The notes: generated by a model not told the origin, from the letters alone. 64,000 bases of DNA from Amphiscolops sp. MND2022 (GCA_964187785.1 OZ076409.1:79300001-79364000), one strand, 5' to 3'. Counted from the first letter of the stretch, positions 1-59,156 are shown. Numbers and translations are program-made.

Positions 1-7
1 ATTTTAG

Positions 8-13128: not shown

Positions 13129-13320
13129 AGCCACGTCATCCGACAGACTACTACTACAACAAAGTGCGCAACACAAACAACTACTACTATACAAAAAACT
13201 ACAAAACCCGGGCAACAGATCTTCGGCAGGATCAAAAACCCATGACTACAACTACCCACAAAACTACCAATGAAACGACTCATGAAGATGCGATGACTAC
13301 CTCCGAACCGGCAAATGTGA

Positions 13321-17946: not shown

Positions 17947-19847
17947 AAACACACACCCATAATCACACTTATTAAACCAACGACTGCTAACAGCAGTCAT
18001 CAACAGCCTTTTCATCTGACCGTAAAGGTAATTGTTTTACAATTACACCCTAGTACACCAAGCATTCAACAAACAATAGTGAAAATTCTGAACAACCTAG
18101 CAAACACTTCAATTAACATGATTAAACGACCATTCATTTCCGTCGTCGCTGTGTAAACTGTCTAAGTTATCAGCATCAATCACTAGCGGAACAAGCAAAT
18201 AGTAAAGTAACGACTGCACACGCCTATCATTCCAACACTCGCGGTCCGGAAGTACATGTAACGCGCAAAAGTGTGAACGATAATTTATTCAATTCGCACC
18301 AAATTTACTACATCCACAACCGAAACTAAAGCAATTTGCTTAGAAAAATATCAATGCATAACTAACGAAGCGTGAACGAAAACAACGTTCCCTACAAATG
18401 CAACAAACTAACAGTGATGATCTGCTGCCTGGCAAACGTTAGGACAACATAACCAATACTCCACCTATTTCGCTTTAGACGCATAGTCCTGGCTGTGTGG
18501 GTGCGTCGTCAAAAAGCGTGCTTGTGTGGTTGGTCATACATACAGATGAAGGTTGCTCTTTAGCAACTGGATTCAGCGTTAGTTTTGCATAGGTGGTTCC
18601 GACGGGAATTCACCTTTTCCAATGAACTGAACATCTAAACTAAAAACCAATCACTAAAAGCTAACAAAACGCCGGTAAGAACAAGAACTTACCAACTCCT
18701 GAAAGCAATGATCGCCCGGCCCCTTAAACGTAACCCAGGATGCGAAGGCTTCGCCTCATTAGGGAAAAGATTAAGGAGTACGCGGCCCCAAAAGGCTACT
18801 TAACGACGAAACCTAAACATGTCCATCCTTCTCAGCCTAACAACTTGGTACCACTGCAGTTAACATAACGTAAGAACTCGCGATCTCGACGACACACATC
18901 ACGTGTGATGACGTCCCAGGACACACATCAACGATGATGACGTCGCAAACACAGACCGCTGCATGTAATAAATCGAAACACACCAAAATACATGTAAAGT
19001 AGTCCCTAAAACTTATAACACGTAAAACTTACATGCATACCTAATAAGTCATGTATCAAGTCAAGGATCCACCCCTTGGGAATTCAGTCTTTGAAATGAG
19101 CGAGCTGCTCAGTCACGTACCTCGCGGCGCGGTGCTAAGGACCGAAAGCCACAGTCACCCTGTCTTGTTACCATTCTCGAGCATTCACTAACAACGAATA
19201 GGAGGACTTGACTTTCGAGTACCATGCGCAGCACAGCTTGGCGCGTGAACAATTTTTATGTCAGTGGTTACCGCGGTGACCACCATAACCAACATGAACT
19301 TTCCGAAAAAATTCACTTAAGACGACGTAACAAATAGAGCGGAACGCCGCATGAAATTATAGCCAAGGTATGGGTAACCCCATACAAACACCCAAGAACG
19401 ATAGAGGTAATTTAGCATCATGAACATATATATACTCAAAAAACACGAGAAGTAAGAAACCGTTTAAAACAACCCGAGATTTCATGCACTACAGAAAAAC
19501 AAATCGTTCCCAGACTAGATTAGACCAACGAAGAAAAAATGACGAGTACATGCAGTCAATGCGAACACCGCAACATACAAAAAATTCATTTTTTTACCAC
19601 ATACCACATGCAAAACACCATTGTAACACCTTAAATGCTCAGTACTACGGAAAACAAGAAAAGTTCACTATGATGGTAGAAACCACCAGGACCCAATTAC
19701 TGAATGAGCTCAATACTAATAAACAACAGCAAAATTCGGCAAAGTAATAATACAAAAAAAAATCCACTAACAAACGCAATCATCCAAGTGATACACAAAT
19801 AAAATAAATATCAAAAAGTTCAAGAAAATCTGCAAAACAAGTCTGCT

Positions 19848-22800: not shown

Positions 22801-24156
22801 CGCTTGTTCCTCGGGAAACCAACAAAGGTCCCCACAACGCCTGACACGAAGAATGACGGCTTTAAAGTTTTGATCGCACGTTTCCGTCCTGTAAACACAA
22901 CCACAACCAGCTGAACAAACTGATTTAGAAACCTTAAAACCTTCAAAAAAACACAAAAAACAAAAACCTGTGTTTGTCCTTAACACCCTAGTAGCATATG
23001 TTATTCAATAATTTAACAATTACCACTAAAACCCCCCCACATGATCTTATGAGATTCATTACCAGGTTTTGACGTCGTCGCAACGCCAGAAGCAGAAGAG
23101 GATGGAGCACCCGACGGAACTATCACACTGCGTTCCCCGAATTCCGCGGGCGGCACATCTGAACACACACCAGTCCGGAAGCCCTCCACTCCAGCTATAC
23201 TGCCAGCTACGGATGGTGGACGCGGCAGAACATCATTGACCGGAGGAATGACTGGCGGATGACACAGTTCCTGGATCGCAGCTTTCAATTTGTCAAGGAA
23301 TTCCTCGACGGCGAGGGCACCCACCGTCCCCAACTTGCCGAGACTCGATTCCACAGCTGCCTTCACCCACTGTTGTATGTCATGCTCAACCCGAGTGAAC
23401 AATTCTGTAAACTGACCTGACACAACGTCAGCTCGCACAACAGCATCTGTAAATATAACATACCCGAATAGCTGTGACTACTTAGGATACAACTGACCAC
23501 CGGCGCTCACCGCTTCTGAACACCTGAACTCTGACGGCACCCCACCCCCCTGACAGTGCAATGGTATGGAAACACAATAAGCAATACCCCCTACACAACT
23601 CAGTAGACGAAACAACTTAGAAAACACAGCAGTGAGTACACCTACCGAGATGCGACGACAAGAAGGCATCCAATCGCCGCAGTATTGGAGTCGACTCTAA
23701 ACTCCCTGAGGATCCAGTTGCCACAGACGATCGGAAGTGGCGTAGGTATGCAATCAACTCAGACATGTCGACGTCGACTATAAACAAAAATGAACCAAAT
23801 GGCACAAGAACGTCACAAACCTCCAGATGTGACGGGTTTAGCCCTCATAGATGGCGACCCCACGATGAGACACTTTGGACCTCCCACTTATGAAAAGAAA
23901 AGCTCTGAGATCAAAACTTACCAAATTCCTGGGAAAGCACGACATCCAGCAGGTCACTCAGACCAACAATATTCGCGGACGAAACCCGCGAAGTGAATTG
24001 ACAGCAGTGACTAGTAGCCATCAAGATTTCTGGCAAATCCAGACCACCTCCACTCCCATCTAAAGGAGGATTCGAAGACGCCATTTGCTGCTCCACGACG
24101 GCAACTAGCTCAGACAGGCCAGGTCCAAAAGAAAGCTCTCCCTCATCTTCCGACAT
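19848..24156 (-). CDS. E2 antisense accessory gene, ~1120 aa, 8 predicted exons; BED-like zinc finger plus degenerate hAT transposase body
   Basis: Predicted exons 24156-23922, 23777-23646, 23549-23511, 23446-23063, 22888-22326, 22183-21695, 21517-21304, 21154-19848 (3363 nt, divisible by 3). All introns are GT-AG with matching phases; the donor at 21303 is the weakest. Motifs CRLC..LSIAGRG..LWDHWKGREH, SKCQ|SLVLYGLYP, LVERWDDLGAYF. Confidence 0.78.
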
Positions 24157-24958
24157 TATCGAGGATAACAATTTAACAGGATAAATAACAGGGCTCCAAA
24201 CAACAAGGCGACGAAAAACACGACTGCAACAGCTCATTCTTCCATTTACTGTTGTTATAGACTGATCACCTATATCAATACCCAATGGATACCCGACCTG
24301 CCCATCAAACAGTCTTACTCAAGTAACACTGGACATTAACGGACCCACAGTGTGGACTCAACACGAAGAACTCAAATGCTATTTACAACTAGCAGAAAGA
24401 AAGCAGCCGAAGTTTTCCTAGCCAAAAAAGCCCATCTATCCCCCCAGAATTGTGCTTAATACAATCAACACCCGAAAAATACAGGACCAACCAAGGAAAA
24501 CAAAATAGATTATTTTTATCATTGTGGAAGAATGAGCAAATCCAACGGTTGACAAACGAAGGTGGATAATTTCAAGTTCGAACAGGCTCAAATTCAATTT
24601 CAATAGCAATAAATACTCAACTGACTTTCACTATGGCAACGCAACAAATCAATCAACTGCCGATGATCGATGAAAAGTTGCTTAAACAAACATTCCACAA
24701 TATGCGCACCACACGGATGACGTGGCTGACCGACAGTTACTATAAATAGACTTCAACTTCCGACTGCTTACTATTTGCCTGCCTCGCCTTGGCCATTCAC
24801 GCTTCCGAAAAAGTTTTCAGCCGCTTCATTTGCCACCCACACGTTTCCATCTACCTTGCATGCCACTTCAGCCGCCGTTTAACAATCAACTCAACCACCT
24901 GCTACTACTCAACTCAGCCGTTCACCTTTCCCATTACCCCTACAGCTTACTCTCTCTC

Positions 24959-24974
24959 AAAAAGGGGGGGGGAA
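24959..24974 (+). other. E2 polypurine tract
   Basis: AAAAAGGGGGGGGGAA immediately before the TGT start of the 3' LTR. Confidence 0.9.
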
Positions 24975-26102
24975 TGTCATGCCCGCCAAGCATGAAGAAA
25001 TGAAATAAACTCTAAAACATTAATCCTTACACCAAACTCCCTAAAATACAGATCATCATGTAAATACATTGCAGTAATTTATTAGCTAAACATTACAGTT
25101 GGCTATATGACAACTGAAACTAGCAGTCATCAATACTAAATTCATTCATGTTATGGTGCATCGTTTAAAAGCTAAAACTGAAATATCCAGTTATTTCCAT
25201 ATTTACGACTGAAACAATCAGTCATCATCCACAGTGATAGTGCATCGTTTAACCATTCTTTATCCATTTTTTATATTACATGTAACGTACTACCAGAACA
25301 ATCAATCATTCATAGTCATAACAATCCATTCACTTAAAACACAACATTTCGTTCATTTATATCAGTAATTCGTGCAATATCCATTAGTAAATTACTTCAA
25401 ACGATAATTAGAGCAGTCACCACGATGATAAGAACACTCAGTAGTAAAGCCTCAATATGAGAGATAATTTGAAATAATTACGTGCTAAGATGACTGGTGC
25501 TTGCGGTCATACTAGATCAAACATACGTAATTGAGCATCGATTATCACCTGCAACGACTGTGGCTACCAGTCGTCAAGTGCAATTAGCAGGTTGAACGCC
25601 ATTGGCTAAGAGGAAAGGTGCTAACACACTTCCATAATTGTACTATCGGGTAAAACCGAACAACACACACGAATTGTAACTTTTGACGAGATAAGTTGCT
25701 TACTACTGTATCTTCCTATCATCATTCCAATTCATACCATTATACCATTTCAAATTTAACTTAAAACCTTTTGGCTTTTCATGGTAACTACCAGATCTCA
25801 AAGTAATCGTGACAAGCAAATAGAAACGCAAAATATGGATAGATCTAGTGACAGTGAAAGCGATGCTAGTTTCCCAGATGTGTTATCCAGAGACCAAATT
25901 GAGAATCTCGATTCCGAAGACGTATTAACCAGACATCATGGTAATCATAACAATAGTGTCGATCAACGTTTTAATGAGTTAAATAGACAAATTGGAGACC
26001 TTACAAGTATAGTCCTTACCTTAACAAACCAGATTGCCTCCATTAACGGAGAAGGGAACAGACCGAACATAGCAACTACAAGTGCTAACAGTCGTTCCGA
26101 CA
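24975..26102 (+). repeat. E2 3' LTR (1128 bp), containing the gag N-terminal ORF from ATG 25781
   Basis: TGTCA...CCGACA; direct repeat of 10933-11911. Confidence 0.96.
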
Positions 26103-27393
26103 GATGGCGCAACGCTTTCAATATGAAAATTCGATGCTTTCAATTGAAATCGATGAATATATAATTTTCAACATGGTTGTGATTCACAAAATGGCAAACA
26201 CAAAAATGGATCTCGGTTGAAAGATGGTTTCGCGATGGTAAATGATTGAATATCTCAGGAATAAACTTAGGATGGATTGGGTTATAACAACTTAGTCTTA
26301 GAAGCATTGACCTCGTTGTTGGTAATTTCTTCCCTCCCGTTTTCTCATCGGGATAGGTCATGAAGTATGTTTTCACTGTAAGTCTCGCGGTCATTTGTTA
26401 GGAGTTTTGGTTTGGTAACAGCGTTTGATCAGGAGTTCATATTAATATATTTAACATACTTCAAAACTGGCGGATGGGAATTATATAAATATCGTAGGGT
26501 TGCTCACCACCGTAGCTCCATAATATGGCTCCATATTGCTCATAAATAAGTATATATGACATAGTACGTATATTGTAAATGTTAAATAGATCTATATTTC
26601 TATCATGCTGGTATGGCAGGGTCGGTCCGTAGACCAAAAGGTCTAGCATATCGGCCGCCCTACCCATTTCCATCGTTTTGTGTATCTCTTAGACAACAAA
26701 AAAGTGACTTTGGTGAGTATGTTGGCTTTCATCTCAGCTAAAACCAATAACTAAAACTTACTTTAAATTCTACATAAGAAATCTTCAGGGAGCAATTAAA
26801 ACGTCTAAATCAGAAATGAAGTTCTATGAAATCCTATCTAAAACGAAACTGAAAACGTAATATCAGCCACATTAGGTGGAGTGTTTAAAAATTTGGCGCA
26901 ATTTTAGTCTGTCGGTTACAATTTCAATTCTTTTGTAAAAATAGGTTTCAATGTTGCCAATGTTACCTATCAGTTCCCAAGCTTGAAGGATAGTTGTTCA
27001 AAAACTGCGAGGTTACTCGAGAACGTTTTGGGTCAAAAACTCGGGTTCGATAGTTATGTCAAAGTACTTTTTCAACATTTTCAACAAAGTATAATTCACA
27101 GTCAAAACCAGGAACCGGATAAAAAAGTAAAAACCGTTTTTTTTACTTTTTTTAACTTTGTTGGGATCCGACGAAGAAAAAAAGTAAGTAATGGTTAGAC
27201 AATTCCTTTACCATTTCTGAGAACTACAAGGCATGCAAGTTTAAGGTTAAAATCGGACAAGCAAGTACGCTGTTTTTCTCAGAAATGTGTGACAACGTGT
27301 GAAAGGAAATAATTATTTACTTGACAAGTGCAGATGAAATAGCACCTGTTCGTCAAACCACGTCAAACTTGATTTTGCGAGTGAAGCCCATTT

Positions 27394-28130
27394 TTGCGTC
27401 TTGCGGGCTCTGGGATTATGTGTACAGCGTGTGACACAAAAAGATGCCACAATCAGAAGTCAGATATTCAGGCTCAATTGAATCGAGCAAAGCACCTGGA
27501 CAACGAGAAGAAGTCCATGAAAAAGGAGCAGAGCCTTCTATCATTTGAAGCAGACTCTAGGGGCAGAAAATGGGCAAGCGCACTCTCGGAGGCTGGCATA
27601 CCGTTCAGTAAATTGGATGATATAAAATTTCGCGTGTTTCGCGAGACAGAGCATGGTTATTGTTTTCCGTCAGAGCGTTCTTTACGCAAATTATTCTTGG
27701 ATAAGGTAGTTTCCGATAAGAAGGCTGAAATGCAAGCTCAACTTACCGAAACTGACATTTACTTGATTTTTGATGAAACTACAAACAAGCTTATCGAAAT
27801 GCTCATCCAGACGAAGGTCATTTCCTGCCGCTCTACCTCCTTGGCCCATTGTCTCAAGGTAAAAATCTTAAAATTTTTAGGTGGGGCACATGCATTCGCT
27901 GTGGCGTATACATTGCCGAAAAGTTCGCTTTGATCAAAGAATGGGTTGACAATTTGGCCGATGACGGCATTATTTCATCGACTGACACCAAAAACCCAGA
28001 TCTGGAATTTGTCACTACCCATCCTGCTCTGTTCTCGTACGTGCTCCTCACCTCGTGCGAAGTGAACGGCTGTTTAGTTTGCTCAAGATTAAGCTGGAAA
28101 ACTGCAGAAACATTAAGTTGGAGACAGTCC
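27394..28130 (+). pseudogene. Decayed, internally deleted hAT-superfamily (CGGBP1-like) transposase
   Basis: CTAC...AKH zinc finger, AGIPFSKLD, IYLIFDETTN (first catalytic D) and frameshifted TSCEV/ERLFS near 28050-28080. TIRs not identified. Confidence 0.7.
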
Positions 28131-28685
28131 AAAAGGGTCTATTTATGCGTATTTAACCTGTAATTCACTGGCTGAATTTACCGATAACTTACTTTTTTTA
28201 CTTTTTTCTTACTTTTTCAGGTGTTTTGGTTTACTCTAAGAAGTACTTTTTCCGCAAAATTTTTAATTTTTTTCCGGTTACTAGTCAAAACTAGAATTAG
28301 TTTGCTTTTTTCGTTTTCGAAGAAACGAAATGCCTTTACGCTTTGAGAAGTACCAGGAGGAAAAGCTTTCATTTTAATTTCAGGATCGGACGCGTTGATC
28401 AAATTCAGATTGATTCGGACAGATTTTGATTCTCAAATTCAATTGTTTTCACAGTTTCGTCCTGAAATTGGTTTGATTCATTAAGAGGCAACGATAAAGT
28501 CGGGTGTTCTCGGGTCGTAAAGATGCCAGTCATTGTATTTAATGTTTTATTGCAGCACTCTATTTTGGCAAAACATTCTCAAATTCAGGCTTGAAGTTTC
28601 ATTTTTGATCCGTTACAACTCCTTAGACTCTAAAAGTTTCGATAATTTGATTTTGTGGTCAATATTTGTCATTCTTTTTAAACTT

Positions 28686-31330: not shown

Positions 31331-31334
31331 CGAA

Positions 31335-42795: not shown

Positions 42796-43198
42796 TGTCG
42801 CGAAGTTTGTAGGGCATTCTTTCGTAACAATGAATGAAAATGATTGATTTTCATTGTTTCAGTCATATCCGGCTGCATTTTAATCATTGTGTGAAAGAGA
42901 TCTTCGAAAAGTTCAAATTTCTCAGATTTACCGTCAAAAGTCAGTGTGGTGGAACTGACAGGTCGTACCATTAGCGTTTGTGCTGATGGACGATTGTTCA
43001 TGCCAACCAATACTTCAGCTAGACGGTTAATGGGGTCAGAACCGGTAGTAGGTGCTGTAGTCTCAGAGACCTGGGGGATTGTATCCTGAGACTCGTTATT
43101 GTTGGAATGTTGACTTTGCAGGGGTTCACGGGATTGCATGGGACGTCCAGTGAGGAACTCAGGAACCATATGTGGGGTAGGGTTGGCTCCTGTCACCA
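42796..43198 (-). other. Extra PBS plus ~385 bp of gag plus an 8-bp LTR tip, beyond the E5 3' LTR
   Basis: PBS 43187-43198; 42804-43186 duplicates ~57111-57492; TGTCGCGA at 42796-42803 equals the LTR terminus; then the TSD. Confidence 0.88.
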
Positions 43199-44849
43199 TG
43201 TCGCGATTTTGTTCGCTGTTATATGAGTCTGTTGAACTTTCTCTAGACCTCAGTCTAGTATTTTCCTGTGTAAAGCAAGTTCTGGGACGATTTTCCCACG
43301 ATTTCTGAGCATTTCCAACTTCGGCGTTCCGTTGTAGCCCACTGGACCTTCGATCCCTTACGGTGAAACCGGTCGGCCGTGGGCTCAGATGTGGCCCGTT
43401 GGACCCTCGGTCCACCATGGTGAAATCAAGTCTCCCCTGCGTTTCTAGCGTATTTTGATTAGCCGGAAGCACTGTATTTGTTATTGCAGCTGTGATAGCT
43501 TCCTGGACTTGAGAACTCAAGCAGGTTTGACCTCATTGAGTTTTCTAGACATTTGATTTGAAATTTCCTTATTAATCAACCTAGTGGTCTCAATTGTGAT
43601 TTCGCTGTTTTCCCTACTATTGGTATTAAGTAAAGATATGAAATCTTCTCTTATAACGTTTGAACTTTGTTGTGGTCTACTAGACCCTGAATCCAAATTC
43701 CCTTCGTTTTCGCTAATGTTATTCTCTTCACCACATCTAGAGTAACTTCCAAGCATTATATCTACATTTTCTACATCAGACATTATGTCCAATTGCCTAG
43801 AGCGTCTCTTTTTGGCTTTCTGTCTCCTTGTTGATGGCATTGAACAAACTTTGGAGATTAATAATGAATTGACAAACGGTCTATTATTCCAATAAGTCTT
43901 GCAACGTAACAAATTGAATCAGCAGTGTATATAGTTGATAGTTTCATGAAATCAGAAAGAATCATCCCGGGGCCTACGGGTCCCCGCTATATATACTTCA
44001 CACTGCATGACCCGCAAAATTATGCTGGTCATGTTACTAATAATAGCTCCCGGGTTATATTTTGATACATGACGTCAATATTACTACAGCAAATTGCAGC
44101 TAAATATAGCATCAGGGTAAAATGGAGGGATTGACCAATGGTCTGTAAGTGTGATATTAGTTCTAAAATAAGCACATTTTGCTTTAAATAGTTACATGTT
44201 TACTTTAATATTTCATGTCTGACAAGTATCATGACAAACAAATCATCCATTATTACTGTACTAATAGACTTAAGGTCCGAGTACTTACATCAGTTTATTT
44301 AAATTGCAGCTCTAAATAGTAGTAACCGTCGCGGACTGACAGTACGCGCGGCTACAGTAAACATAATAGCATCGACTAATTGGCAGCTAATAACACCACG
44401 GTAGACCTTCGGTCCACGTGGCTACAGCAATAATAATGATAAGAATGTACAGCCCTCTGATTGGTTTATTTGAATAAGGCCGGTACGTACGCTGGACGTC
44501 AACAAGCGTTCATTTGAACACGTTTCCTAGTATTCAGCAAGCATTGTACGCATTATTTTACATTCAATTGACTATATTACAAATTCATTTAATCAATCAA
44601 ACAGGCACAAGACTCATCAATTAAGTATATTCCCGTAAGGTAAAAATGAAAACTAAGATGTAGCCGTGTGGACCACAGGTCTGCCACGGTAAAAATATAA
44701 AATAGCACTATTGGGATAAGATTAAACATAGTTTTGAATTGTTTTACCGTAAGTCTTTCAAATTGGCAATACTCCGGGTGGGGGGTTGGATTCTACATAT
44801 TCTTGGGAAATTTGATATTAATTCCCGTCACAGGCGGCAGCCTGCGACA
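43199..44849 (-). repeat. E5 3' LTR (1651 bp)
   Basis: Direct repeat of 57505-59156 with a 1-bp deletion near 43522; preceded on the minus strand by the short PPT AGGGGAG (44850-44856). Confidence 0.95.
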
Positions 44850-44895
44850 CTCCCCTAGGGACCAAAAGAACTTTCCCTTGGTTCATTCCAGCTAA

Positions 44896-45579
44896 CTAAG
44901 CATCTCTCCGTCTCTGTTGATCGTAATGCGTTTCGCCTCGTCTTGTAGTCGACTCAAGGTACGTCAGGACTACAGTCTCGCGGATTTGTTCGTATGATCT
45001 GCCGCACACAATGCAATCTCCATAAAGTGCAGCGTTCGGTTCACCACAGTTTGCTCCAATTCGCACACTAATCCCCTGAATGTGAGAGTTTACGGGCACA
45101 GTAAAATCTGTCACATTGGGTCCAACGTAATCATAACGACCATAGCTGGGCCCTTGTTCGCAAAGAGGTGGAGAAAGTGGCGTGTCCACCTGAGGGACAA
45201 GTTTTGAGCACTGGTTGATTGGACAATTGTTCTCTCTGCCGATTGCGTCTGGGCCAGTTCCTAATTCGACTATTGCTGTTTTGAAATCTTCAGGCCAGAA
45301 GTCCGAAAAGTCGTCCCAGGGGCACTCGGGCAACCCGTCGTCCACGCAGCTAGAGAGGTCCGTAGTCATCTTGCGTGTGGCATTCTGTTTAGTTGGGGCA
45401 ATTGGCACGTGGCGATAACAGGCGATGACTTCTATGTCACTGTCGTCCGAGTGACGTTCGGTCCCTTGCGCTGACACAGACAGAATGTCTACATTCATAT
45501 CCTCCTCTTCCTCTGAAGAGAAGTAGGCTGGGCTGACCAAAGAATTGGCCAATTCATCAATTGTGAATTGAGTTCCCAT
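44896..45579 (-). CDS. E5 second accessory ORF (227 aa, acidic, CxxC), unknown function
   Basis: ATG-initiated open frame just upstream of the PPT, same strand as gag-pol; DDSDIEVIA and CIVCGRSY motifs; no hydrophobic env-like segment. Confidence 0.6.
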   Translation of the reverse strand: MGTQFTIDELANSLVSPAYFSSEEEEDMNVDILSVSAQGTERHSDDSDIEVIACYRHVPIAPTKQNATRKMTTDLSSCVDDGLPECPWDDFSDFWPEDFKTAIVELGTGPDAIGRENNCPINQCSKLVPQVDTPLSPPLCEQGPSYGRYDYVGPNVTDFTVPVNSHIQGISVRIGANCGEPNAALYGDCIVCGRSYEQIRETVVLTYLESTTRRGETHYDQQRRRDA

Positions 45580-46591
45580 CTGAGATTTATATTTTCTAAG
45601 GAGGATTTTCTTGGCAATTTTGAGGTTTGCTAGTAGTCAACTGGTTTGGCTTTTGAAATTTGACTGAATGATTTTCTTCTAGTTATTCGGACTAGTGGTT
45701 TCACCCTTTTCGCGGGAATCCCCAGCGGGGAAAACGTTTTTCATCTTCTCTAAATTCTTGCCAAACATTCCATATTTGTAATTTTACGGAATTTCTAGAA
45801 GTAACAACTGAGGTAAATTTCATGTTAATTGGTCTCTGAGGGACTTGTAAGTTATTTGTACAACTACTTGATAGTAGTGAATAGGTGTAGTAAGTGTTAA
45901 CTCAAGTTAACACTTGGTAAATAAATTCACCATCAAAGACCTTCGGTCCGCGCGGCTACATCGAATCAAGTAGCCAATGAGGTGTCGTTGATAAATGAAT
46001 GATGAAAATTGATGAAAAATGAATGAAAATGGCGATTTTCTAAACTAATACTACTCTAATCCATGAAGTGAACTAATCCCTAAGATGAAGTAAAGACATG
46101 AATTTCACTGGCAGATCCATTCATGGTTTTTAGTTAATAGTTAAATAGTTGTACCAAAGGAAAGTAATGCATAATTGTAGATAAGAGACTGAATAGTAGG
46201 CCACGACATCCATTAGTATGGCGGTAATTAACTAATTAAGTATTTTACGCCTTTTTAATGCAATCGGTCTCAAAGTCTAGTAAAGTCGAAAGAGTAACAT
46301 TACATTAGTACATTGTGAATATAATCTTTGTGTCTGTTTTGGAGCAGTCCAGCAATTTTTATACTTGAAAGTTTACGAAATGCTTGCGTTATCTTTTGAA
46401 TTGATCAGTTCACCCTTTCGAATTCAATCATCCTCAGTGGTTCGGACCTGAAGTCGACACGGCTACAGAGACAATCGATACTGTTAGAGGTGGCCGCATA
46501 TTCTCTCGGCTAGAGGAATTACCCGTGTGGTTCTACCAACCATTTCTCCTTCCCAGCTAGCTAGATTGGACTATAAATTCTGTCTTCCATC

Positions 46592-49500
46592 ATGGAAACA
46601 ACATCAGATTGGTTCTTTAAAGATGTCTAAACTAAACTTGATCAAGGTTTAGGTTCGACTAATTTTACTTCCTCCATCGTGAAAAGTTTTCAAACTCATT
46701 TGAGTGAATTGAACTATACTTCCGAAAGGCTTTTGAAAGCGGTAAGATGGATTCATTTGCAGGAAGTGAACCGCGCGAATTTTTTTCCTTTCTATTTAAG
46801 AATTGATGCAAACGGCCAACCAGTCCAAGAGCCTACTGAAAATAATGGCATTGAAAATGAACCTGGAGCCGCAAATTCACAGGCAGCCCAAGAGACTAAC
46901 AGTACCAGCGTTAATGAAGGTGTATTAGTCAGCAGCCAACAGACTTCTTCCCCTCTCGTCACTTGCAAATTGCCTCCTACTTCAATTGAAATCATCGAAG
47001 ATTCCGGTTCCCAGTCGTCCTCAACCCAAGGGAACACTGAAGGTACTAGAGTAGACCTCCTTACCACGATGGACCCTGCGTCCCAGCCGCCACACTCGCC
47101 AGACTATTCGCCGTCATTGATCAACATGCTAGCATCCGACCAGAGCAGTTCAGAAGAAAGCATCCAGTCTTACTTTACATGTAAGGTCAGATGTACAGAA
47201 GGCGATGCGTCGAACAATGGTAACGTGAGTAAAACTCTCTCTCCCATAAAGGAGAGTGATAGTAGCCCTATCTCCATCACTCCAGCTGGTGATTTGACCC
47301 AAGAAAGGAAAACTGCCGGACCTGATAATTCCACCATCACTTTCCTCGAGCCGCGCCCACAAACTCCTGATGAGCTTGAGAGGGAACAAGATCGAAGGGC
47401 CAGCAAAAGGCCTAGGTTTGGAAGTGCTTCCACATCGGGCACTCATCTTTTTTCTGAAGACCCCTCCCAAACTTTAGGGCAAACGAGCTGTGACCCCAGG
47501 ATGCAAGACAACGAAGAAATGGATCAGGACCCATTCACAGGCCAGCTAATTACCTGCAGCAACTCTGAGGCCGGACTTGAGACCGATGCTGATTCGATTC
47601 AGAATCCCGCCGGATCAACTATAGCCCAAGCTTTAAACGTTCAGACTCGAAGAACACTCTTGGAAGCTGGCGATTTCGACAGTGCTTTCATACCGGTCGG
47701 TCTTCCCAGTACCCCCAAAAAGACAATGCTAGGACCCAGTAGTCGCGCCCTCATCAAAAAATTCTTTACCAACGCTGAGACATTTGATTTCCCCAAGGGT
47801 CACGCGACCATTGCATTCACTGAGGACCAAATTAGTGCCGTTGTAAAAACCGTTGCTGAAGAGACAGTTAGAACATCCTGTGACATGATGGAGAGGCTCA
47901 TACAGAAAGCGAGCGAATTGAATCTAGGGACCAGGGCTAACCGCAGTTTCTTTCCAGAGGGCTCGACAGCCCAAGGTTCCCTCCGGTCAAGTAGTCTGAC
48001 AACAGGACGATTTAGTGAGACAAGTGGCGCACTCCGAAGCGACGACGAGTTCTCCAGTATAGGGTACTCTTTCGAGCAGGCCGAACACGAGAAAATCAAC
48101 GCACCTCCCAAAGCTGGGTATGCCCCGTCGTGTAGCTATAAGGACCCCCGGTCCAATACGGATGTTTGTGGTGCAGATAGTCCAAGTGGTCAGACATTAG
48201 CTTCACTGAAAGCTGAAGCGCTCAATGACCGTAGTAAGCGCACCCGTAACCGCAAAGGGCGTTTTTCGGCAAATTCTGGTGCTGGAGGTACACGACGCAC
48301 TGTCACTAGATCTTGTAAGATCATGAAAGAAGCGTACTTTCGAGGGATGGAGTGGACGCGTACATTCGTTTCTGGCCCAGTAGACCCAAGGTGGAATCCC
48401 TATAAATTCTACTGGCAGATATGCAAGGCTAACATCTCGATATATGTTAAAGGAGCTCGGGAAGGAAATACTACGCCATTACGCCACAGAGAAGCATCTT
48501 AGGAAGGATCAAAGGTGGCGATATGAGTACCTATATCAAGTCGATCCCGTTACCAGGACCAAGATCTACCAAGTCAGAGGAAAAGATGGGAAACTTCTAA
48601 CCACGTATCAGTTGGAAATAGAGCTGCCCAAGTTCATCGGAGCGCAATTAGTTGAGATTGGACAGAAGTTGCCATTTTACGATGAGTACATGGCAGGGAT
48701 GGACCATATGTCTTCTTCTTCAGACGAACGAGCGAAGGTCCAACTTTCTATTCTGAGCAAATTCCTTCCACGCATCGGTGATCTTGAGCTCTTGAGGTCT
48801 TTTTGGAATGATGTCGGAGTCGTCGTAAATCATCAGGCTCTTTTCTTAGTGTTAGTTATGAATTACTCCCTAAAACCTCTGTTTCATAACTAGGGTCTAG
48901 TTTTGGCGAGGCCATAGTCGCTGTCCTAATTCTATTTGTTTCGTTTAGGTCCTGTTTCACCACATGTTTTTCGAGATCGTTACCGACATTGGGACTCACA
49001 TTAATGCTAACAACGAGTACGCCGTGGAGTTTGCCATTGATGGAGTAATCCTACTCGGCTTTATCAGATTTTGGCGAGCCGATCAGTTATGCCGCGTGTT
49101 CTTCAAGAGGACTAGCCGTTTGCAAGGCCCTACGAGTGCGGAGGTGTGTCTCCTCTCTTACCTCGTGGGGGCTTTCTCTCCTAAACCCAATCTAATCAGT
49201 TGTACTGGTTGTAGTGCCTGAACCGTCCAGCTTCTTGATCAAAGCCCCTACGGCAATTTCAGTATTCAAAGTCCTCCACGTTTTGAAGAACTCAAATTGC
49301 CACAGTTGCTCCACAAAAAGAATAACAGTGTATTCGGCCGGATAGACTTCTTTTCTGTGGCGAAATATTTAGTGGTTTCGCTGGGCGGTTGCATCGAGCT
49401 GGATTGGGTCCTACTTTCCCCTGAGCTATCCAAGGTATGTTGTACTTTCTTTCCCTATTCCATGACCCACGTGCTGAGTTAAATGTGGAAGATTTCAATC

Positions 49501-51119
49501 TAATTTGTAACATTTGAGCATTTTCACGCTATAGCATTTATTGTGGCTCTGTAGACTTGTGGTCCACTATGGTAAAATTAATTGCCTGTAGGTTCTCTTG
49601 TAGCCCAATGGACTTCCGGTCCACTATGGTGGATTCCGTTAGGAGGTTGTCATACTACAGGGTTTCAAATATTACATCTTTCAGGCCATGAGGACTTGCC
49701 AACTCGACGTCAGTGGGTTACCAGAGCTCTGCCAAGAACTGACCAACAATTGGGCCAAGGTGATAGGCATTTTATCCAAGTACGCTCCCACCCAAGAAGG
49801 GCAAGGAGTCCGAAAACAGGTGACCCTTAACTTCTAGTTTCTGGCATTTTGTACCTTGTGACCACACTTGTTTTAACTCGTACGTGATTTTAGCCTCAAA
49901 ATCTGGAGTGGTCAATTGTGCACGATGATTTGTTCCTCAGCCGACTGGAATTATTTGAACGAATAATCCGTGACTGTAAGTGGAGGGGTTATTAGTTTAG
50001 AATATTTCCCGGTGTTTATTTGCTTGATTGTTCTATCTTTAAGATACCGGAAGTTTCGTCCTAAACCTGAAGTGCCGACGCGATCGTGGTTTTCATGTGT
50101 ATAAGGAGTTCTGCCAATTCCTCTTCAAACTCGGCCGAAGATGTGTGCGAGCCAACAGTCTTCCTGCAGAGAACGATTACCAAGGAATTCTGGGTTTATC
50201 TTTCCCTGATGCCAAGGCATTGCCCGTTGAAGACTTCATCACCCGTTCAAAACTTAGGACTCGGCTCGATACTTGCTGTAGACGAAAAGCGGAGAAAGAG
50301 ATGGGAGAAGAACGAAACAGGACCCTCAGTCTAGATGAAGTCACTGCTAATAATCGTGAGGAGTTTGGGCGATCAGCTAGAGGGTATGTAGCTCACATAC
50401 TCAAGTCTACCCAAGGACTCACTCGATTTACCTCAGATATTGTGAGAGGCTTGGGTTCCTTTGACTTGGAAATTATGCTGAGAGACCCACTAGAGCAAGC
50501 GACCTATTGTTTCAAGCAGCTATTTACCAGTTTCCGGTTACGTGAGATCTTTCAGCCCGATGAAGATGCTCTTTATTTGGAGGAATATCTCTCCTTTCTT
50601 GATGAGTTGCGGCGGACTCACTCCGATATCCAGCAGCCTAAGTTGTTAATTGCTGATGCCGTGAACTTCATTACTGGACAAGATGCCTTAAAAACTCGAC
50701 GTCATTTGACTCGTATCTTCCGTCTCAGTTGACTCGGTCTTGATGAACCTCGCTTTTCGTTTCCTGCAGTAAAATACGGTTCTGTGAATACTGATGATCC
50801 AACCAGTGCTGTGTTTGATGTAGTGGCTCCTATTCAATCCTATTTTGGTGAAGTTGCGCGAGAGTTGGACACTGTCACTTCAAGCGAATCTATTGCTCGA
50901 CTGATGACTTTAGAAGCGACCTTCGGTACAACAGGCCTCAGCAATACCTACAGTCCTTGGGATGGGTTCGATTACTTTGGGCGAGATCAGCTGAGTGATG
51001 CAATCAATCCTCGTTCTCCAGAACGTCGTACGGTAGTCACTCATGCTCCCGTCGATCAACCTTGTTCCAGTAAATCCTCGAAAGAACCTCACAGCTCCAA
51101 AGGCTCTGATAAAGTTTAA
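46592..51119 (+). pseudogene. E5 antisense accessory gene (homolog of the E1/E2 genes), spliced, with nonsense and frameshift lesions
   Basis: Introns ~48851-48948, 49435-49684, 49820-49893, 49976-50043. Zinc finger FY(W)QICKANISI..ILRHYATEKH. Stops at 46628, 49219 and 50730; 4-bp duplication near 48460. Confidence 0.78.
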
Positions 51120-51299
51120 TTGTACTATGTGTACAATTGTACCATAAACCATTCTGTTCATTTTGAAGAAACTTTTGATATTTGTTTATTTGTATTTCTG
51201 TTGTTAGTGTCTTTATTGTATTTACGGTCTATCAGTCAGTCAGGTCCCAAAAAGATACTACTATTATTCACGTGTGGGGACAGTAATTTATATATCTCA

Positions 51300-54200
51300 C
51301 TAGTATCTGTATTCGTCAGTAAAGTTGGGGGTGGGGTTAGGACGAAGGTTATATTTTCCTCCCCTAGGACTTTTATTGTCTACTAAGACATCATCATTTT
51401 CATCGTCTAATACTTCGGGCACGATAGTATCGCTCCCTCCTGATGATTCAGGATCATCAATTTGTTCATTTAAGCGATCTGAGCAATTATCTTGAGTCAT
51501 ACCAAAATCGTCATTTTCGTGTAGCCCGGGGGACTCAAGGTCCTCGCTGGTGAAATTGTTATCGGGGGCCGTGGCACCCTTTTCATGATGAGGCCCGGTG
51601 GACGTAAGATCCACGTCGGTGAAAATCTTGTCTTGCGTAGCGGTATCATTGTCAAGGGTACTAGAATTGTCTCGGTCATCTTGGCACATGGGAATTGCAT
51701 GTGTATCAGCGGAATTGCGAAATTCTCCAAAATTTGTTTCCCAGGTGATGACATAAATCGTCTAGCGGTATAATAATTTCGTCGTCCGGGTGCAAATTGC
51801 CTTCCGGTCTGATGTCCTGTAAGACGGTGTTCGGTTCATATTTGCGCAGCCTGATTCGGTGTAGGAGTTGCGTTTTCTTGGAATTTAGTTTTCTAACTAT
51901 GTAATTTTCATTTGGCAAAACTTTTTCCACAATATAAGGTCCGGTCCATCGATATTCACGGAATGGAATTTTCGATCCTTGGTGGTCAGCAAAAGGTTGT
52001 AGTATAAAACAATAGTCATTCTGTTTCAAAGGAGCCGCTTTGGCCTTCCGGTCATAGTATTCTTTGTACTTCAAATATGACTGCATGATGTTTTTCTTCG
52101 TGGAATCTAGTAATATTTGCGTGCGTCGCTGAAATTCTTCTGCAAAATCCGTAGTCGGTAGGACTTTAGGGTTAGGATTAAGGCCCAATTTGTGATCCAA
52201 TATGTTATATGGGATCCGTCCGTGGAAAATTTTAGATGGTTCACATCCCAGGGTGGCATGATAAGTCGTATTGTAGTTCAATACGGCTAGCGGCAGATAT
52301 TGATGCCACTGTCGCCTGTAGTCCCCTGAGGCCATTTTAAGGTTCGTTTTGAGACTAGCGTGTGTTCGTTCTAATTTACCGATCGTCTGTGGGTGTTTTG
52401 TAGTTGCGCATTTTATTTGGGTTCCTAAGATTTGAGCAATTTCAGCCACCAGCTTGGACGTGAAGGCCGTACCTTTGTCAGTAATCAGGGTAGTAGGCAG
52501 ATAAGTGTGTTTAGTCATTATGTCTATGATGACTTTTGCCGTATTTGTGGCCGAAGCGTCCGTGACTGGATATGCAAAAAGATATCTTGAAAACACGTCC
52601 AGTGCGGTGATGATATTTTCGTATCCGCCACTTGGTGGTAAATTTGGTAACATATCAATTTGCATTGCATCCTCTGGTCCAAGGTCCCATTCAGGCGAAT
52701 TAAGGAGTTCAGGGGTGATTTGGAATCCTTTTGTCCTTGATACAAGTTTCACATCCCTGAACCCATTTTTTGACAATTTTCGCAATTCCAGGGTAGTAAT
52801 ATTTTTGTCGAATTTCAATAAGCATTTTTGATATTCCTGGGTGTTTATTTGCTTTCCCGTATAAAGATTCAAGTAGTTCTGTAATTAAATGTTTTGGTAA
52901 GAGTACTTGATTGTATTTAACAGAGCCTGTTTCATCAAAATACTGCCTAGTGATAATTTCATTCATGACGGACAGACAGTCCATTTGGCGACAGTAATGT
53001 TGGTATCGATTGTCTTGCATTAATATGGTCTCGGAGTAGTTTTCTTTCAGAATTTTAAGGCGCAATTGGTGTAAGATGACATCGTTGTTCTGTTCGATTG
53101 CTATAGTGTTTGTATAAGATAATTTTTGAATTGTTGTTAGTTTGTGATAATCGCTTTTGTGTGTAGTGAATTTTTCGAATGAGATATCTGGTAGTTGATT
53201 TGCTGGATCGTGTCTTGCGTCCCTTTTACGTTGTAGAATTTGTTCTACCGACTCGTCATCCTCCGTGTAGAAAATTTGTTCTTCTTCCGGCACTCACGCC
53301 GATTGGACATGTAGTTCAATCGGTGTTGTTGGGATATCTTCTCTTATCCTGAGGATCAATTTTTCTCTTGGAGAGATTTCAAGCCGGGACAGATAGTCTG
53401 CGGCGGTGTTGTTTTTGCCTGGTATATGGGCAATTGTGAAATTAAACTGAATAACATAGTCACATGCGCTCCATAGTGTTGGTGGAATGATTTTTGTCTG
53501 CAAAAATCGTGTGACTGATTTGTTGTCCGAAGGTATTATCACCGGTTTTGGGGTTCCCCAAAATATATGTCCAAATTCCTTGAAGGCAAAGAAAATGGCC
53601 AGGAATTCCTTTGCATAGATGGACATTTTCAATTGGGTAGGACTAAAGGTCTTGGATCCATAAGCTACTGGTGCAAAGGCTTTCCTCGTAGATGTATATT
53701 TCTCGAGGGGATCGTCTTCGATGAGAACTGCGTACCCTGCGGCCGAAAAGCTAGCGTCGGTCATAAGGGCTATTTGCTTGTTCGGTAGGGGTTGTTTGAG
53801 TGCCAGTTCACAACATCGATCAAGAGCCTTATTTATTTCGGTGAATTTCTCCAGGAGGTCCGGTGTGACCAGGACCTTTTCATCTTTCGTAAGCAATTTG
53901 AAAAACGGTGTTAGTTTTTCTGATAGCCTTGGGATGTAATTCCTGTAATATTTCAGGAACCCCAAGTAACGCTGTAGTGCTTTCTTGGATTTTGGAAATT
54001 TCGTATTTTCCAGAAAAGTTTGGACCCGTGGTCGTTGCGGCTTCACTCCCGCCGGAGTGATAGTGCGACCCAGGAAATCATTTTCGGTTGCCCCAAAGTG
54101 ACATTTATGCATTGTAAGTTTCAGTCCGGCTTTTTGGATGCATTGGAATGTGGCCCTAAGGTTTTTGGTAAGTTGGTCGGCATCATTAGCTGCTATTCCG

Positions 54201-56385
54201 ATATCATCAACATATTGGGCACATTGGTCGGCTTTGATGACTTTGTCCAAATATTCGCGCATGAAGCTAGAAAAGGCCGATAGGGCTCTGCTAAGTCCTT
54301 GTGCTAGCCTTTTGTACGCAAAGGTTCTGCTGGCGAAGTTGAAGGCAAGCATTTCGATAGACCTTTGGTCAGCCATTTGTAGACAGTGGTAGGCTTGCGA
54401 GCAATCCAGTTTACAGAATAGCTTCTTTCCAGCCATATGTTGGGCTGCATCAGTAAGTGTACTCACTGGATGATTGTTGTTAATATAGTCATCCGAGATC
54501 AGGTTGTTAATTTTGCGTAAATCGACTAGAAGTCTCAATTTGCCATTGGGCTTCTTTTGTGCGAAAATGGGACTGGCGTATTTGGAGAATGGTAGAGTTG
54601 TAATTATCCCATAGCGGTGTAGTAGGGCCAATTCCACAAGGATGTCCTCCTTGAGATTGATTGAAGTTGGCAAACTCTGACTATAGGCCGGGGAGTCATC
54701 TTTCGGGGTTAATTTGACCTTGAAGTCTTCGTTCATGCCTATGTCGAAGCGATGCTAGCAAAGACATCATGAAATTCAACAAGCAGGTCCTCTATGCGGG
54801 CTATTTCAGCGGGTTGGAGCATAGAGTCAGTCCAATCAAAGTTGGATAAGAATTGACTTCTCGACTCAGGGTCGTCCTGAGGATTAAGTTTTTCTAGTTC
54901 CTGAAGATTGACGAGTTCTGATAAAATCCTTTTCTGAATAGGCGTATGATTCTGAGTATCTCCAGGGTTTTCTGGTGTTGGAAACCAATAGTTTTCCTTG
55001 AAGTCCTCAGGTTTGGTGGATTTGATCAAGCTACTTGCATAGTAAGCAGCGTTTTCAGGGTTGTCCTGTAACAGGTGCCATGTGGTTACCGGGTCGATAG
55101 GTTTGACATATTTCATTTGTTCTGGCGTGAGAACAGTGAAATTAGCAACTTGTGTGCCCCTTTTGAGGGTGTAAGGGCTGTCCGTAAAATTGTTCAAATG
55201 AACTGAAACTTGACCATTGGTCAATGTGACTAGAGCGGCACAGAAAGCAATATCGCCATCTTCCGTAATGTTGTGGCTCGGTTGAAGGATCCCAGTAACT
55301 GTAGTGTTCTCGTACAGTTGTGTCGCCAGAAGGACCGAGTGTCGGTCATTAGGTGGGATGATTACATCCTCCCTAATGGAAATGGGTTCCATGACGTTTG
55401 TGTATTTGTGATCGGCAGTTTTTAACTGCATTGAAAAGAATGGGAAATTCAGGACACCTTGTCGCATGTCCAGAATGGTGTTGTTCCTTTGAAGGAACGA
55501 AAGACCAATCAACGGACTGGTGAGTTTTTCCATGACTATGAATATTTCGTGAAATTCAATATCGCCGACTTCAAACTTCAGTTCGACGGTGCTCTTTGGA
55601 GTCTCCAGCTGTCCATTAGCAACCATAATTTGGAAGCCAGGAGCCGGGCCCTCTTTGACAATCGACTGAGGGGCAAGTAATCGGATTTTACGTAGATCAG
55701 CTTCTGGGATTGCGCTAGATAGGGCTCCCGTGTCTACAAGGCCGTTAAATGTTAGTTCGCCAAAATCCATCGGAAAATAGAGCATTCGTCTCTTGTACTT
55801 GAGGCCAAGATTAGTTGTCAGCGGTACATAGTCTGGTTCACCTGTTCCTGTGATTAGGGTGTTCACAAAACGGGCAGCAACTGTTGTGGCCAGTGAGACC
55901 TGTGGTCCCGCACGGTGAAATTCATCGTCGGGCTCAGCCTGCGTGACTTGAGATCTCTGTGGTGTGTCATGTTGCCATAGATCGACCTTGGTTTTCACAA
56001 GAACCATATTCAAGGCTTGGTCAATGTCATTAGAATCTGGTTCTCTGATGTGATTTGGTTGGTTGAAATTACGGTAGAAGTATAGATGATGTTGATTGTA
56101 GCAATTAGCGTCCCAATAGGGATCAAAACCATAGTCCGGGTGCGGGTAATATGGGTTATAGTCATCAACAAGAGGTATAAGACGTATAGTCGAAGTATCA
56201 TTTTGTAGTCTGTTGGACATAGGGTCCGGAGAGGTAGGTGGAGTCTTCATCTGCTGCTGCCAGTCAGCTGATGATGTTTCTTTAAGAGAGTTATAATATT
56301 CAGTGTAATATATGTTTGAAGGGTCTGATATTATGTATTGTCGGACACGAAGTTTTGTATTAAATTGGAGTCGTGGCAAATCTAG
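51300..56385 (-). pseudogene. pol: E5 pol, disrupted
   Basis: LVDTGA, AQYVDD, MTDAS, integrase IDML/TDKGT/ERTH, WTGPY; stop at 53294 and several frameshifts. Confidence 0.93.
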
Positions 56386-58147
56386 TTTTTTGGGTTTTTC
56401 AGGATAGAGGTTGTTTGTTTGTTTTGGGCATCATTATTACTAGTGGACGGGTCGTCGGTTTTGAAGTCCTCTAGTTTGAGGTTTTTGGGCTTGAGGTGGG
56501 CTCCAGCGCCTTTCCAACATCTTTCGGCCGGGTGGTTCGTTTTGTCGCAAGTTGGACATTTTGGATATTCTTTCTTGGTATCCTGACCGTCATTGCGTCG
56601 TTGTTCCTCCTTTCTTTTGAGTTTTTGGCAGTCGTCTTTGACATGTCCCGGTTTCTTGCAATATTTGCAGATAATGTTGGAGTCGATGCCAGAAAAAAGA
56701 AGGCCAGTTCCCGGTCGTGTTGCTGTAGGGGCAGTGGACATTGTGGGTACTGGAATGTCGTCCCCCTCCTCGAGTCCATTGAGCTCTAGCTCTCGTTCTA
56801 AATGGGTGACAATTTCCTCATAAGTAGCGTTTTCAAGTCTAGCCATGTTGACTGAACGTTTCAATTTCGGCGGCAATTTGGCATATAGGAGGCTGTCAAT
56901 CATTGCCTGAGCATTCTCGCCAAACGCCTTTTCGGCTCCTTGGTTGAGTTCTTCAAGGAAGTCTGGCAATTTCATGGTATTTGGGTCAAACACCAATCTG
57001 TGCCATTTGTGTTTGGCGGTCGCCTGGGACTCTGGTTTGACATATTTTCGACGAAATACTGCCAGGATTTCCTCCAAGGTTTGCCTGTTTGCCGTATTGA
57101 TGTTACGGAAAGTTTGTAGGGCTTTCTTTCGTAACAATGAATGAAAATGATTGATTTTCATTGTTTCAGTCATATCCGGCTGCATTTTAATCATTGTGTG
57201 AAAGAGATCTTCGAAAAGTTCAAATTTCTCAGATTCACCGTCAAAGTCAGTGTGGTGGAACTGACAGGTCGTACCATTAGCGTTTGTGCTGATGGACGAT
57301 TGTTCATGCCAACCAATACTTCAGCTAGACGGTTAATGGGGTCAGAACCGGTAGTAGGTGCTGTAGTCTCAGAGACCTGGGGGATTGTATCCTGAGACTC
57401 GTTATTGTTGGAATGTTGACTTTGCAGGGGTTCACGGGATTGCATGGGACGTCCAGTGAGGAACTCAGGAACCATATGTGGGGTAGGGTTGGCTCCTGTC
57501 ACCATGTCGCGATTTTGTTCGCTGTTATATGAGTCTGTTGAACTTTCTCTAGACCTCAGTCTAGTATTTTCCTGTGTAAAGCAAGTTCTGGGACGATTTT
57601 CCCACGATTTCTGAGCATTTCCAACTTCGGCGTTCCGTTGTAGCCCACTGGACCTTCGGTCCCTTACGGTGAAATCGGTCGGCCGTGGGTTCAGATGTGG
57701 CCCGTTGGACCCTCGGTCCACCATTGTGAAATCAAGTCTCCCCTGCGTTTCCAGCGTATTTTGAATAGCCGGAAGCACTGTATTTGTTATTGCAGCTGTG
57801 ATAGCTTCCTGGACTTGAGAACTCAAGCTAGTTTTGACCTCATTGAGTTTTCTAGACATTTGATTTGAAATTTCCTCATTAATCAACCTAGTGGTCTCAA
57901 TTGTGATTTCGCTGTTTTCCCTACTATTGGTATTAAGTAAAGATCTGAAATCTTCTCCTATAACGTTTGAACTTTGTTGTGGTCTACTAGACCCTGAATC
58001 CAAATTCCCTTCGTTTTCGCTAATGTTATTCTCTTCATCACATCTAGAGTAACTTCCAAGCATTATATCTACATTTTCTACATCAGACATTATGTCCAAT
58101 TGCCTAGAGCGTCTCTCTTTGGCTTTCTGTCTCCTTGTTGATGGCAT
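56382..58147 (-). pseudogene. gag: E5 gag (ATG 58147 inside the LTR; 1-bp deletion near 57243)
   Basis: MPSTRRQKAK start; CKYCKKPGHVKDDC and CPTCDKTNHPAERC knuckles; AAAAAAC at 56385-56391 before TAG. Confidence 0.9.
57493..57504 (-). other. E5 primer-binding site TGGTGACAGGAG
   Basis: Directly after the LTR end ...ATCGCGACA. Confidence 0.9.
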
Positions 58148-59156
58148 TGAACAAACATTGGAGATTAATAATGAATTGACAAACGGTCTATTATTCCAAT
58201 AAGTCTTGCAACGTAACAAATTGAATCAGCAGTGTATATAGTTGATAGTTTCATGAAATCAGAAAGAATCATCCCGGGGACTACGGGTCCCCGCTATATA
58301 TACTTCACACTGCATGACCCGCAAAATTATGCTGGTCATGTTACTAAAAATAGCTCCCGGGTTATATTTTGATACATGACGTCAATATTACTACAGCAAA
58401 TTGCAGCTAAATATAGCATCAGGGTAAAATGGAGGGATTGACCAATGGTCTGTAAGTGTGATATTAGTTCTAAAATAAGCACATTTTGCTTTAAATAGTT
58501 ACATGTTTACTTTAATATTTCATGTCTGACAAGTATCATGACAAACAAATCATCCATTATTACTGTACTAATAGACTTAAGGTCCGAGTAACTACATCAG
58601 TTTATTTAAATTGCAGCTCTAAATAGTAGTAACCGTCGCGGACTGACAGTACGCGCTGCTACAGTAAACATAATAGCATCGACTAATTGGCAGCTAATAA
58701 CACCACGGTAGACCTTCGGTCCACGTGGCTACAGCAATAATAATGATAAGAATGTACAGCCCTCTGATTGGTTTATTTAAATAAGGCCGGTACGTACGCT
58801 GGACGTCAACAAGCGTTCATTTGAACACGTTTCCTAGTATTCAGCAAGCATTGTACGCATTATTTTACATTCAATTGACTATATTACAAATTCATTTAAT
58901 CAATCAAACAGGCACAGGACTCATCAATTAAGTATATTCCCGTAAGGTAAAAATGAAAACTAAGATGTAGCCGTGTGGACCACAGGTCCGCCACGGTAAA
59001 AATATAAAATAGCACTATTGGGATAAGATTAAACATAGTTTTGAATTGTTTTACCGTAAGTCTTTCAAATTGGCAATACTCCGGGTGGGGGGTTGGATTC
59101 TACATATTCTTGGGGAATTTGATAATAATTCCCGTCACAGGCGGCAGCCTGCGACA
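57505..59156 (-). repeat. E5 5' LTR (1652 bp)
   Basis: TGTCGC...GCGACA termini; flanked by TSD AGTAG. Confidence 0.95.

Follow-up and report, generated by a model that had tools for sequence, protein, structure and literature searches.

An antisense gene of Ty3/gypsy elements in Amphiscolops sp. with a likely hAT transposase ancestry and type-specific dispersed DNA motifs

The window analysed here comprises 64,000 nt from Amphiscolops sp. MND2022 (OZ076409.1:79300001-79364000) and holds three Ty3/gypsy long terminal repeat (LTR) retrotransposons, E1, E2 and E5. Each of them carries a gene that is split by GT-AG introns and located on the opposite strand, between pol and the 3' LTR. We consider the chances to be even that the encoded protein is a disarmed, likely hAT-derived and dimeric self-regulator, predicted to bind a motif of its own element. 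E1- and E5-type elements, as well as elements with a fourth gene type (type 4), are each enriched in their own distinct motif. The original prediction for this region had proposed a pseudo-enzyme domesticated by another transposon. This is supported by the loss of catalytic residues, a kept zinc finger motif and purifying selection, DNA binding being predicted.

The antisense gene and its relatives

The exon limits of the E5 gene (plus strand) were predicted from GT-AG signals and relatives. Exon 1 (46747..48850) codes for a long, low-complexity N-terminus rich in Ser and acidic residues, a BED-type zinc finger C-x2-C...H-x5-H (48413..48497, damaged in this copy) and a helical region. Exon 2 (48949..49434) covers a predicted RNase-H-like b1-b5 core with the first helices. 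Exon 3 (49685..49819) holds a helix with an invariant Trp at its end and LDV 14 residues upstream, at the place of the hAT motif TRW. Exon 4 (49894..49975) consists of 27 codons, and exon 5 (50044..51119) encodes an all-helical domain followed by a basic/Ser-rich tail. The E5 copy is a pseudogene, as exon 1 shows frame breaks and a deletion and in-frame stops are located at 49219 and 50730. Hence the family was read from relatives. The E2 gene is located at 19848..22979 on the minus strand (BED exon ~22329-22889, core exon 21695-22180, a further exon 21306-21517, last exon 19848-21154). For E1 the 3' exons are found at 8..2168 on the plus strand (8-628, 717-798 and about 943-2168) and the BED exon directly beyond the left border of the window (L031:9231-9788).

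According to hhalign, the three proteins share homology along their length (E1-E5 99.96% over 634 columns, E1-E2 97.1% over 586, E5-E2 89.9% over 179). For each of E1, E5 and E2, the last exon served as query against the 1.07-Gb assembly of Amphiscolops sp. MND2022, and all scored candidates were matches (126/126, 150/150 and 141/141, respectively); the first-look candidates amount to 7467, 6140 and 839, which are not copy numbers. The fourth gene type was found via a distant database protein, giving four types in all. A last-exon profile yielded 1171 clusters at 50% identity with E<=0.001, and 183 of 183 retrieved proteins align to gene models. An integrase frame is located downstream on the opposite strand in 66/66 E1-, E5- and type-4 loci; the 15 E2-type loci are too short to reach it, and E2 of the window does show the integrase.

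The multi-exon gene encodes proteins of ~750-1250 amino acids (aa), of which no full-length member was present in the databases searched. The finger motif C-x2-C...H-x4-7-H occurs in 66 of the 78 loci with a match, and its ligands are conserved by 91-100% in 32 gene models, for which only loci with every exon covered to 80% or more were kept. The Pfam zf-BED match to the E2 copy stays below the cut-off (E=0.12). A basic or Ser-rich tail remains, as had been claimed before (K+R 16-21%, S 13-24%).

The proportion of nonsynonymous differences (pN) ranges from 0.05 to 0.27 compared to 0.39-0.87 for synonymous ones (pS) in 26/26 pairs. The ratio of the corresponding rates (dN/dS) is 0.03-0.12 in the 10/26 pairs with a computable, that is unsaturated, dS. 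Such strong purifying selection suggests that the antisense gene is a working part of the elements and not passive cargo. Gene swaps between types were not found among 54 loci. Within the E1 type (L032, L201, L188-L204), pairs whose integrase identity exceeds 0.9 have last exons of the accessory gene that are only 39-45% identical. Either this gene changes much faster than pol or close relatives exchange it.

A deletion derivative was observed in addition. Locus L047 contains an open frame of 818 aa (3646-6099) in which an internal deletion joins the disordered N-terminus to the last exon, so that finger and core are gone. Its pol is open, and motif density is still high with 29 sites in 10 kb.

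Fold, ancestry and catalytic positions

The model of the middle exon, although of low confidence, is RNase-H-like, and the best Foldseek match is the Hermes hAT transposase (E=0.001, prob 0.91). Hermes occupies ranks 1, 3, 4 and 5 for this core model, and no other insertion-type transposase is found among the top 50 matches listed. The VIA ranges of core model and Hermes are 5..110 vs 155..264 and 5..196 vs 156..387. Moreover the order of finger, helices, b1-b5 and a long helical part is that of hAT. The distance between the equivalents of CxxH and of Hermes W319 is 61 residues in E1, compared to 48-85 in 14 hATs, and by eye the LxDNW of Hermes recurs in E5-type proteins, in the helix that follows the TRW position. 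The W319 equivalent, 14 residues before the invariant Trp, is Phe/Tyr in 10/10 E1 proteins, Phe (5) or Ile (5) in E2 and aliphatic in 12/12 E5 proteins. In Atlas the nearest features are DDE_3 transposases (score 0.80), which we regard as a lead only, and the last exon falls next to unnamed clusters with scores of 0.84 or less.

Based on the predicted structure, the antisense protein likely descends from a hAT transposase. Several results lend this origin no support. A Trp at the position of the invariant Trp is found in only 2/15 genome hATs, which makes the W319-equivalent pattern a weak sign. The last-exon model is all-helical and had no match in Foldseek and VIA, hAT not being listed, and profiles gave no match for a hAT helical insertion domain or the C-terminal PF05699 region. 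Profile-profile comparisons with Ac/Buster-like, Tip-like and CGGBP1-like hATs of the genome gave nothing above reversed controls. Other than that, Pfam searches returned nothing over the cut-off for 14 window ORFs (open reading frames), for 63 core exons, or for 52 out of 145 new relatives and two further sequences. Searches of PDB sequences with three alignments gave no match. By eye the last exon may resemble hATs of the ZNF862/C17orf113 type; PF14291 and PF25431 had no match in the genome nor in the controls.

It is conceivable that the hAT likeness, seen by eye, misleads and that the donor was a Mutator/IS256-, P- or Transib-like protein with RNase-H fold, or a host finger protein. We rate this as improbable. 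The ranks of Hermes, the lack of any other insertion-type transposase in the listed top 50, the BED-type finger at the N-terminus and the LxDNW helix all speak against it. Among the DDE (Asp-Asp-Glu) transposases, the donor was probably a hAT.

Residues D180, D248 and E572 of Hermes are taken by us to be its catalytic triad. The Hermes numbering was anchored at W182, H268 and W319, as given in PMC4763223. The VIA range 5..110 vs 155..264 was taken as gap-free, placing D180 at residue 30 of E1, the Glu of QFEKD, and C265 at residue 111. D248 corresponds to Gly88, located after the fourth strand. The reading of catalytic loss holds under this predicted register. In E5 the equivalent of D180 (49033..49035) is Ala, compared to Glu in E1 and Arg in E2. 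That of D248 (49207..49209), placed by its location after predicted b4 and by eye against the Hermes sequence, is Gly, and that of the CxxH motif (49276..49287) reads PRFE, without the Cys/His pair.

We inspected 64 core exons (23 E1, 11 E5, 13 E2, 17 type 4), comprising 33 from the first alignment and, out of 37 loci added later, the 31 that were full-length and distinct. The replacement of the first acidic position, already claimed from the three window copies, was borne out: Asp is found in 0/64, Glu in 16/64 and otherwise Q, A, R, M, V, I, L or H, with the caveat that 13 of the 23 E1-type rows carry Glu, a conservative change. At the second position, on which the original prediction did not comment, 51/64 exons show Gly and 3/64 Asp, all three of type 4. 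Between residues 24 and 112 of the core, acidic residues reach at most 39/64 in any column.

The motif [TS]RW is present in none of the 32 gene models vs 10/10 hAT transposases of the same genome. Its absence from the window copies, as originally noted, is thus family-wide and not the decay of one copy. CxxH is likewise absent (0/32 vs 8/10 genome hATs). ERx[FW]S is found in 0/32 gene models and, anywhere in the sequence, in 2/187 last-exon rows vs 8/10 genome hATs. The column equated by eye with the catalytic Glu shows Val in 74% and D/E in 10% of these 187 rows. The loss of ERxFS stands, whereas the proposal that segments such as the Pro-rich EPRFSFPAVKY in E5 exon 5 (50745-50777, plus strand) or PAVQYPPVSF in E1 (1584-1613) take its place was made by eye and is without statistical support. 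These strings are present in the window, as are YAVEFAID of E5 (49018-49041), YSVQFEKD of E1 (80-103) and, on the minus strand, FGLHVRVD and HDVYRVDF of E2. With both Asp positions, CxxH, TRW and ERxFS lost, the protein is very likely unable to cut DNA, as judged from its sequence.

Two candidates for retained acids were dropped. The VGDN of E2 does not represent the second Asp, since the helix register sets that Asp one residue later, and an Asp in the turn that follows b1, almost invariant in three types (84%), does not occur in type 4.

An active site rearranged from other conserved acids would leave the protein a nuclease. Core-exon residue 134 is D/E in 57/64, the b1-b2 turn Asp is present in 39/64, D13 (93%), E21 and D183 of the last exon are well kept, and three type-4 copies show Asp at the second position. 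However, the acids that are retained map to helices or turns and not to the predicted b1/b4 site, type 4 lacks the turn Asp (0/17) and the residue found at the first position can be E, Q, A, R, M, V, I, L or H. We regard a live nuclease as very improbable. Neither three acids in an active-site geometry nor a non-RNase-H fold of the core, named beforehand as outcomes that would speak against a pseudo-enzyme, was observed.

An unrelated, decayed hAT transposase of the window (27385..28163, plus strand) served for comparison; its ORF (27385-27933) reads IYLIFDETTN, as quoted in the original prediction. It belongs to a short group of 425 aa, presumably the CGGBP1-like one, in which two relatives with open frames (L143 and L144) keep all catalytic motifs. 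The 425-aa relative L143 shows FDET, TDG, CxxH, TRW and ERLFS.

Dispersed motifs and the putative function

The repeat list of the window indicated short recurring strings in E5. An unbiased scan for spaced inverted repeats (3-mers, spacing 2-14, 200 shuffles) revealed 33 sites of GAC-N5-GTC in E5 vs 2.7 expected and a maximum of 9 in the shuffles. With one LTR counted, they are spread over 43402..56456 (LTR 7, intergenic 4, accessory gene 7, gag-pol 15). Other 3-mer dyads at this spacing do not exceed 2.3-fold. E1 is enriched in ACG-N9-CGT, the core CG-N9-CG of which occurs 128 times vs 32 expected (maximum of the shuffles 49), and CG at other spacings (4-8, 10-14) in E1 amounts to 24-37.

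Across the genome, GAC-N5-GTC is the best dyad in 15/15 E5-type loci with 15-29 sites per 10 kb, compared to 0-8.9 in 86 others. For CG-N9-CG the median over 31 E1-type loci is 73 per 10 kb, compared to 11-21 for the other groups. Type 4 is characterised by a non-dyad motif, CCGCATA. Its median over 20 loci is 13.3 per 10 kb, and 81 others do not exceed 2.0. The E1 and E5 motifs are each enriched in LTR, intergenic region, accessory gene and gag-pol of their own element but not of the other. No dyad was seen in the controls, which were 20 hAT loci and a small gypsy element (30144-36034); the latter is of another lineage with 214-base LTRs and lacks the antisense gene, and in its pol CG-N9-CG was counted 9 times vs 5 (9/200).

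The motifs in pol survive synonymous-codon permutation (E1 54 vs 23, E5 13 vs 2; 0/200), ruling out an artefact of the protein sequence. RNA hairpins as an explanation of GAC-N5-GTC were set aside: G-U variants are not above their mirrors (3, 5, 3 vs 7, 3, 5), which at low power argues weakly for DNA instead of RNA hairpins.

Dimeric DNA-binding proteins usually recognise spaced inverted repeats, and hAT transposases, as oligomers, contact short repeats via their BED finger. On sequence grounds we are slightly inclined to regard the antisense protein as the binder of the dispersed motifs. A hAT element may have inserted backwards into an ancestral gypsy element, and the introns would have been kept thanks to the antisense orientation, in which they are not spliced out of genomic RNA. 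Subsequently cutting would have been lost and DNA binding kept, while protein and motif would have diverged together in each lineage. The dimeric protein could then bind the motif scattered over its own element and keep the element transcribed or unsilenced. By analogy to plant VANC and TnpA, we tentatively propose a family-specific activator or anti-silencing factor, with slightly less than an even chance.

Some observations weigh against such a pairing of protein and motif. E2-type elements show no clear motif (1/15 loci; E2 of the window is marginal), loci of one type are kin, and the motif type tracks the pol lineage as much as the type of the accessory gene. A further candidate for the binder is encoded by a second extra ORF of ~290-350 aa in E1- and E5-type elements. 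It is located on the sense strand between antisense gene and 3' LTR, head to head with the former (window 44896-45636, minus strand; L031:6679-7542, minus strand; L057:7553-8542, plus strand), and has an acidic N-terminus and Cys pairs or a Gly/Arg-rich end.

Enrichment is highest in the 5' LTR (E1 23 vs 2.9, E5 7 vs 0.2). This fits a promoter role and argues against a dead hAT-derived protein that acts at integration by tethering the complex of integrase and complementary DNA (cDNA) to chromatin or to selected target sites, or by coating cDNA for nuclear import. The ordinary target duplications, 5 bp long and differing in sequence, also point away from it. Such a role is rather unlikely in our view, even though finger and basic tail are retained, motifs occur throughout the element including coding DNA, as a cDNA coat would need, and nuclear import has been proposed for antisense ORFs in PMC7264820.

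The same data on catalytic loss and motifs would also suit a self-limiting repressor or decoy, which would control copy number or poison active hAT transposases in mixed oligomers, the motifs being operators or sites of host factors, and the genome holds many hAT elements with intact frames. We consider this unlikely: the protein is too diverged from the resident hATs for any profile match, which makes mixed oligomers unlikely, and the carrier families are young and abundant.

A protein that binds and activates its own element would represent a sequence-specific counter-defence in an animal retrotransposon, could help to explain why the carrier families are so abundant and would provide naturally diverged finger proteins for which target sequences are predicted. 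The predicted binding sites make the function directly testable, since four protein types and three motifs lend themselves to a cross-over comparison of binding.

Host elements and comparison with known systems

All three host elements have TG...CA ends and target duplications of 5 bp. E5 (42796..59156, minus strand) is flanked by AGTAG, and its LTRs (~42796-44849 and 57101-59156) are 98.7% identical. E1 (1..10932, minus strand) begins 5.6 kb outside the left border of the window, and its LTRs show 99.4% identity. It is inserted into the E2 5' LTR, at a distance of 154 bases from the E2 start, with a clean CAGTC duplication. E2 (10933..26102, plus strand) shows the duplication GATGG and LTR parts with 99.6% identity. 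The gag frames (E5 57191-58225 and 43517-43918; E2 11605-13128 and 25760-26164; E1 7824-9098) already begin well within the LTR, some 100-240 codons ahead of the primer site TGGTGACAGGAG. They cross the LTR end in all three elements, and hence the 3' LTR repeats the N-terminus of gag. Apart from these, the window contains an element at 38581-42788 that has at its borders two inverted arrays, both built from a 15-base tandem unit (38588-38633, 42638-42788), and includes 1186-base direct repeats (38701-39885, 41294-42478), as well as a near-perfect palindrome of 184 bases (28686-28869; arms of 92 bases, 95%, no spacer).

Compared to hAT transposases (Hermes; PDB 4d1q, 2bw3, 6dww, 8edg), the antisense protein is alike in its BED-type finger, predicted b1-b5 core, long helical region and motif spacing. 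It differs by the absence of DDE triad, CxxH, TRW and ERxFS, a shorter b1-b2 hairpin, ~90 extra conserved C-terminal residues with the basic tail, and the lack of a sequence-level match. Moreover it is encoded in an LTR element with TG...CA ends and 5-bp duplications, not between terminal inverted repeats with 8-bp duplications. Judged by sequence (triad, CxxH, TRW and termini), it is not an active hAT transposase.

By its layout the gene is an antisense accessory ORF of gypsy (aORF-3R): antisense, in the interval from pol to the 3' LTR, and present in most copies. Such ORFs are described for gypsy elements of plants and fungi (Grande gene23, RIRE2, Retand TRP28/PF04195) in PMC7264820 and PMC11963269, which state their origin and function as unknown and report no detected likeness to other transposons. 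Position, orientation, conservation in most copies and a proposed nuclear or DNA-binding regulatory role are shared. In contrast, the gene described here is from an animal, multi-exon, codes for ~750-1250 aa and has a transposase-like architecture. PF04195, the Retand TRP28 domain, had no match in the Pfam searches of window ORFs, relatives and core exons, and at the sequence level the gene is not TRP28. This antisense gypsy ORF family comes with a likely donor, a DNA transposase of another class.

VANC likewise is an accessory protein encoded by its element and binds a short motif for which its own VANDAL family is enriched and which related families lack, according to PMC5735166. It derives from MAIN-like host proteins, as stated in PMC13547354. 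A comparable family-specific motif is present for E1, E5 and type 4 but not for E2. VANC sits in DNA transposons, and its motifs are tandem, in the same orientation and non-coding, whereas here spaced dyads are scattered along the element and extend to synonymous positions of pol. Binding is demonstrated for VANC and predicted from the motifs here. A captured hAT that became a family-specific, dimeric anti-silencing or self-activating factor, with sites through the whole element, even in synonymous codons of pol, and one protein-motif pair per subfamily, would represent an animal VANC-like system across transposon classes. We regard this full version as possible but rather doubtful.

Dead-transposase regulators are already known in hosts and within DNA transposons. 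ZBED/DREF proteins are transposase-derived regulators that lost the triad and retained DNA binding. The same is reported for Spm TnpA and MUSTANG in bioRxiv 10.64898/2026.08.24.746577, which describes transposases as intrinsic sequence-specific activators that lose the triad on becoming regulators; its main text uses neither 'retrotransposon' nor 'LTR'. A literature search, in which subscription journals were thinly covered and preprint supplements excluded, found no paper that, judged by its title or the opening of its abstract, deals with a transposase-derived gene of such kind in an LTR element. TnpA arose within the transposase gene of its own element, and MUSTANG and ZBED/DREF serve the host, whereas the owner of the antisense gene is a transposon of another class.

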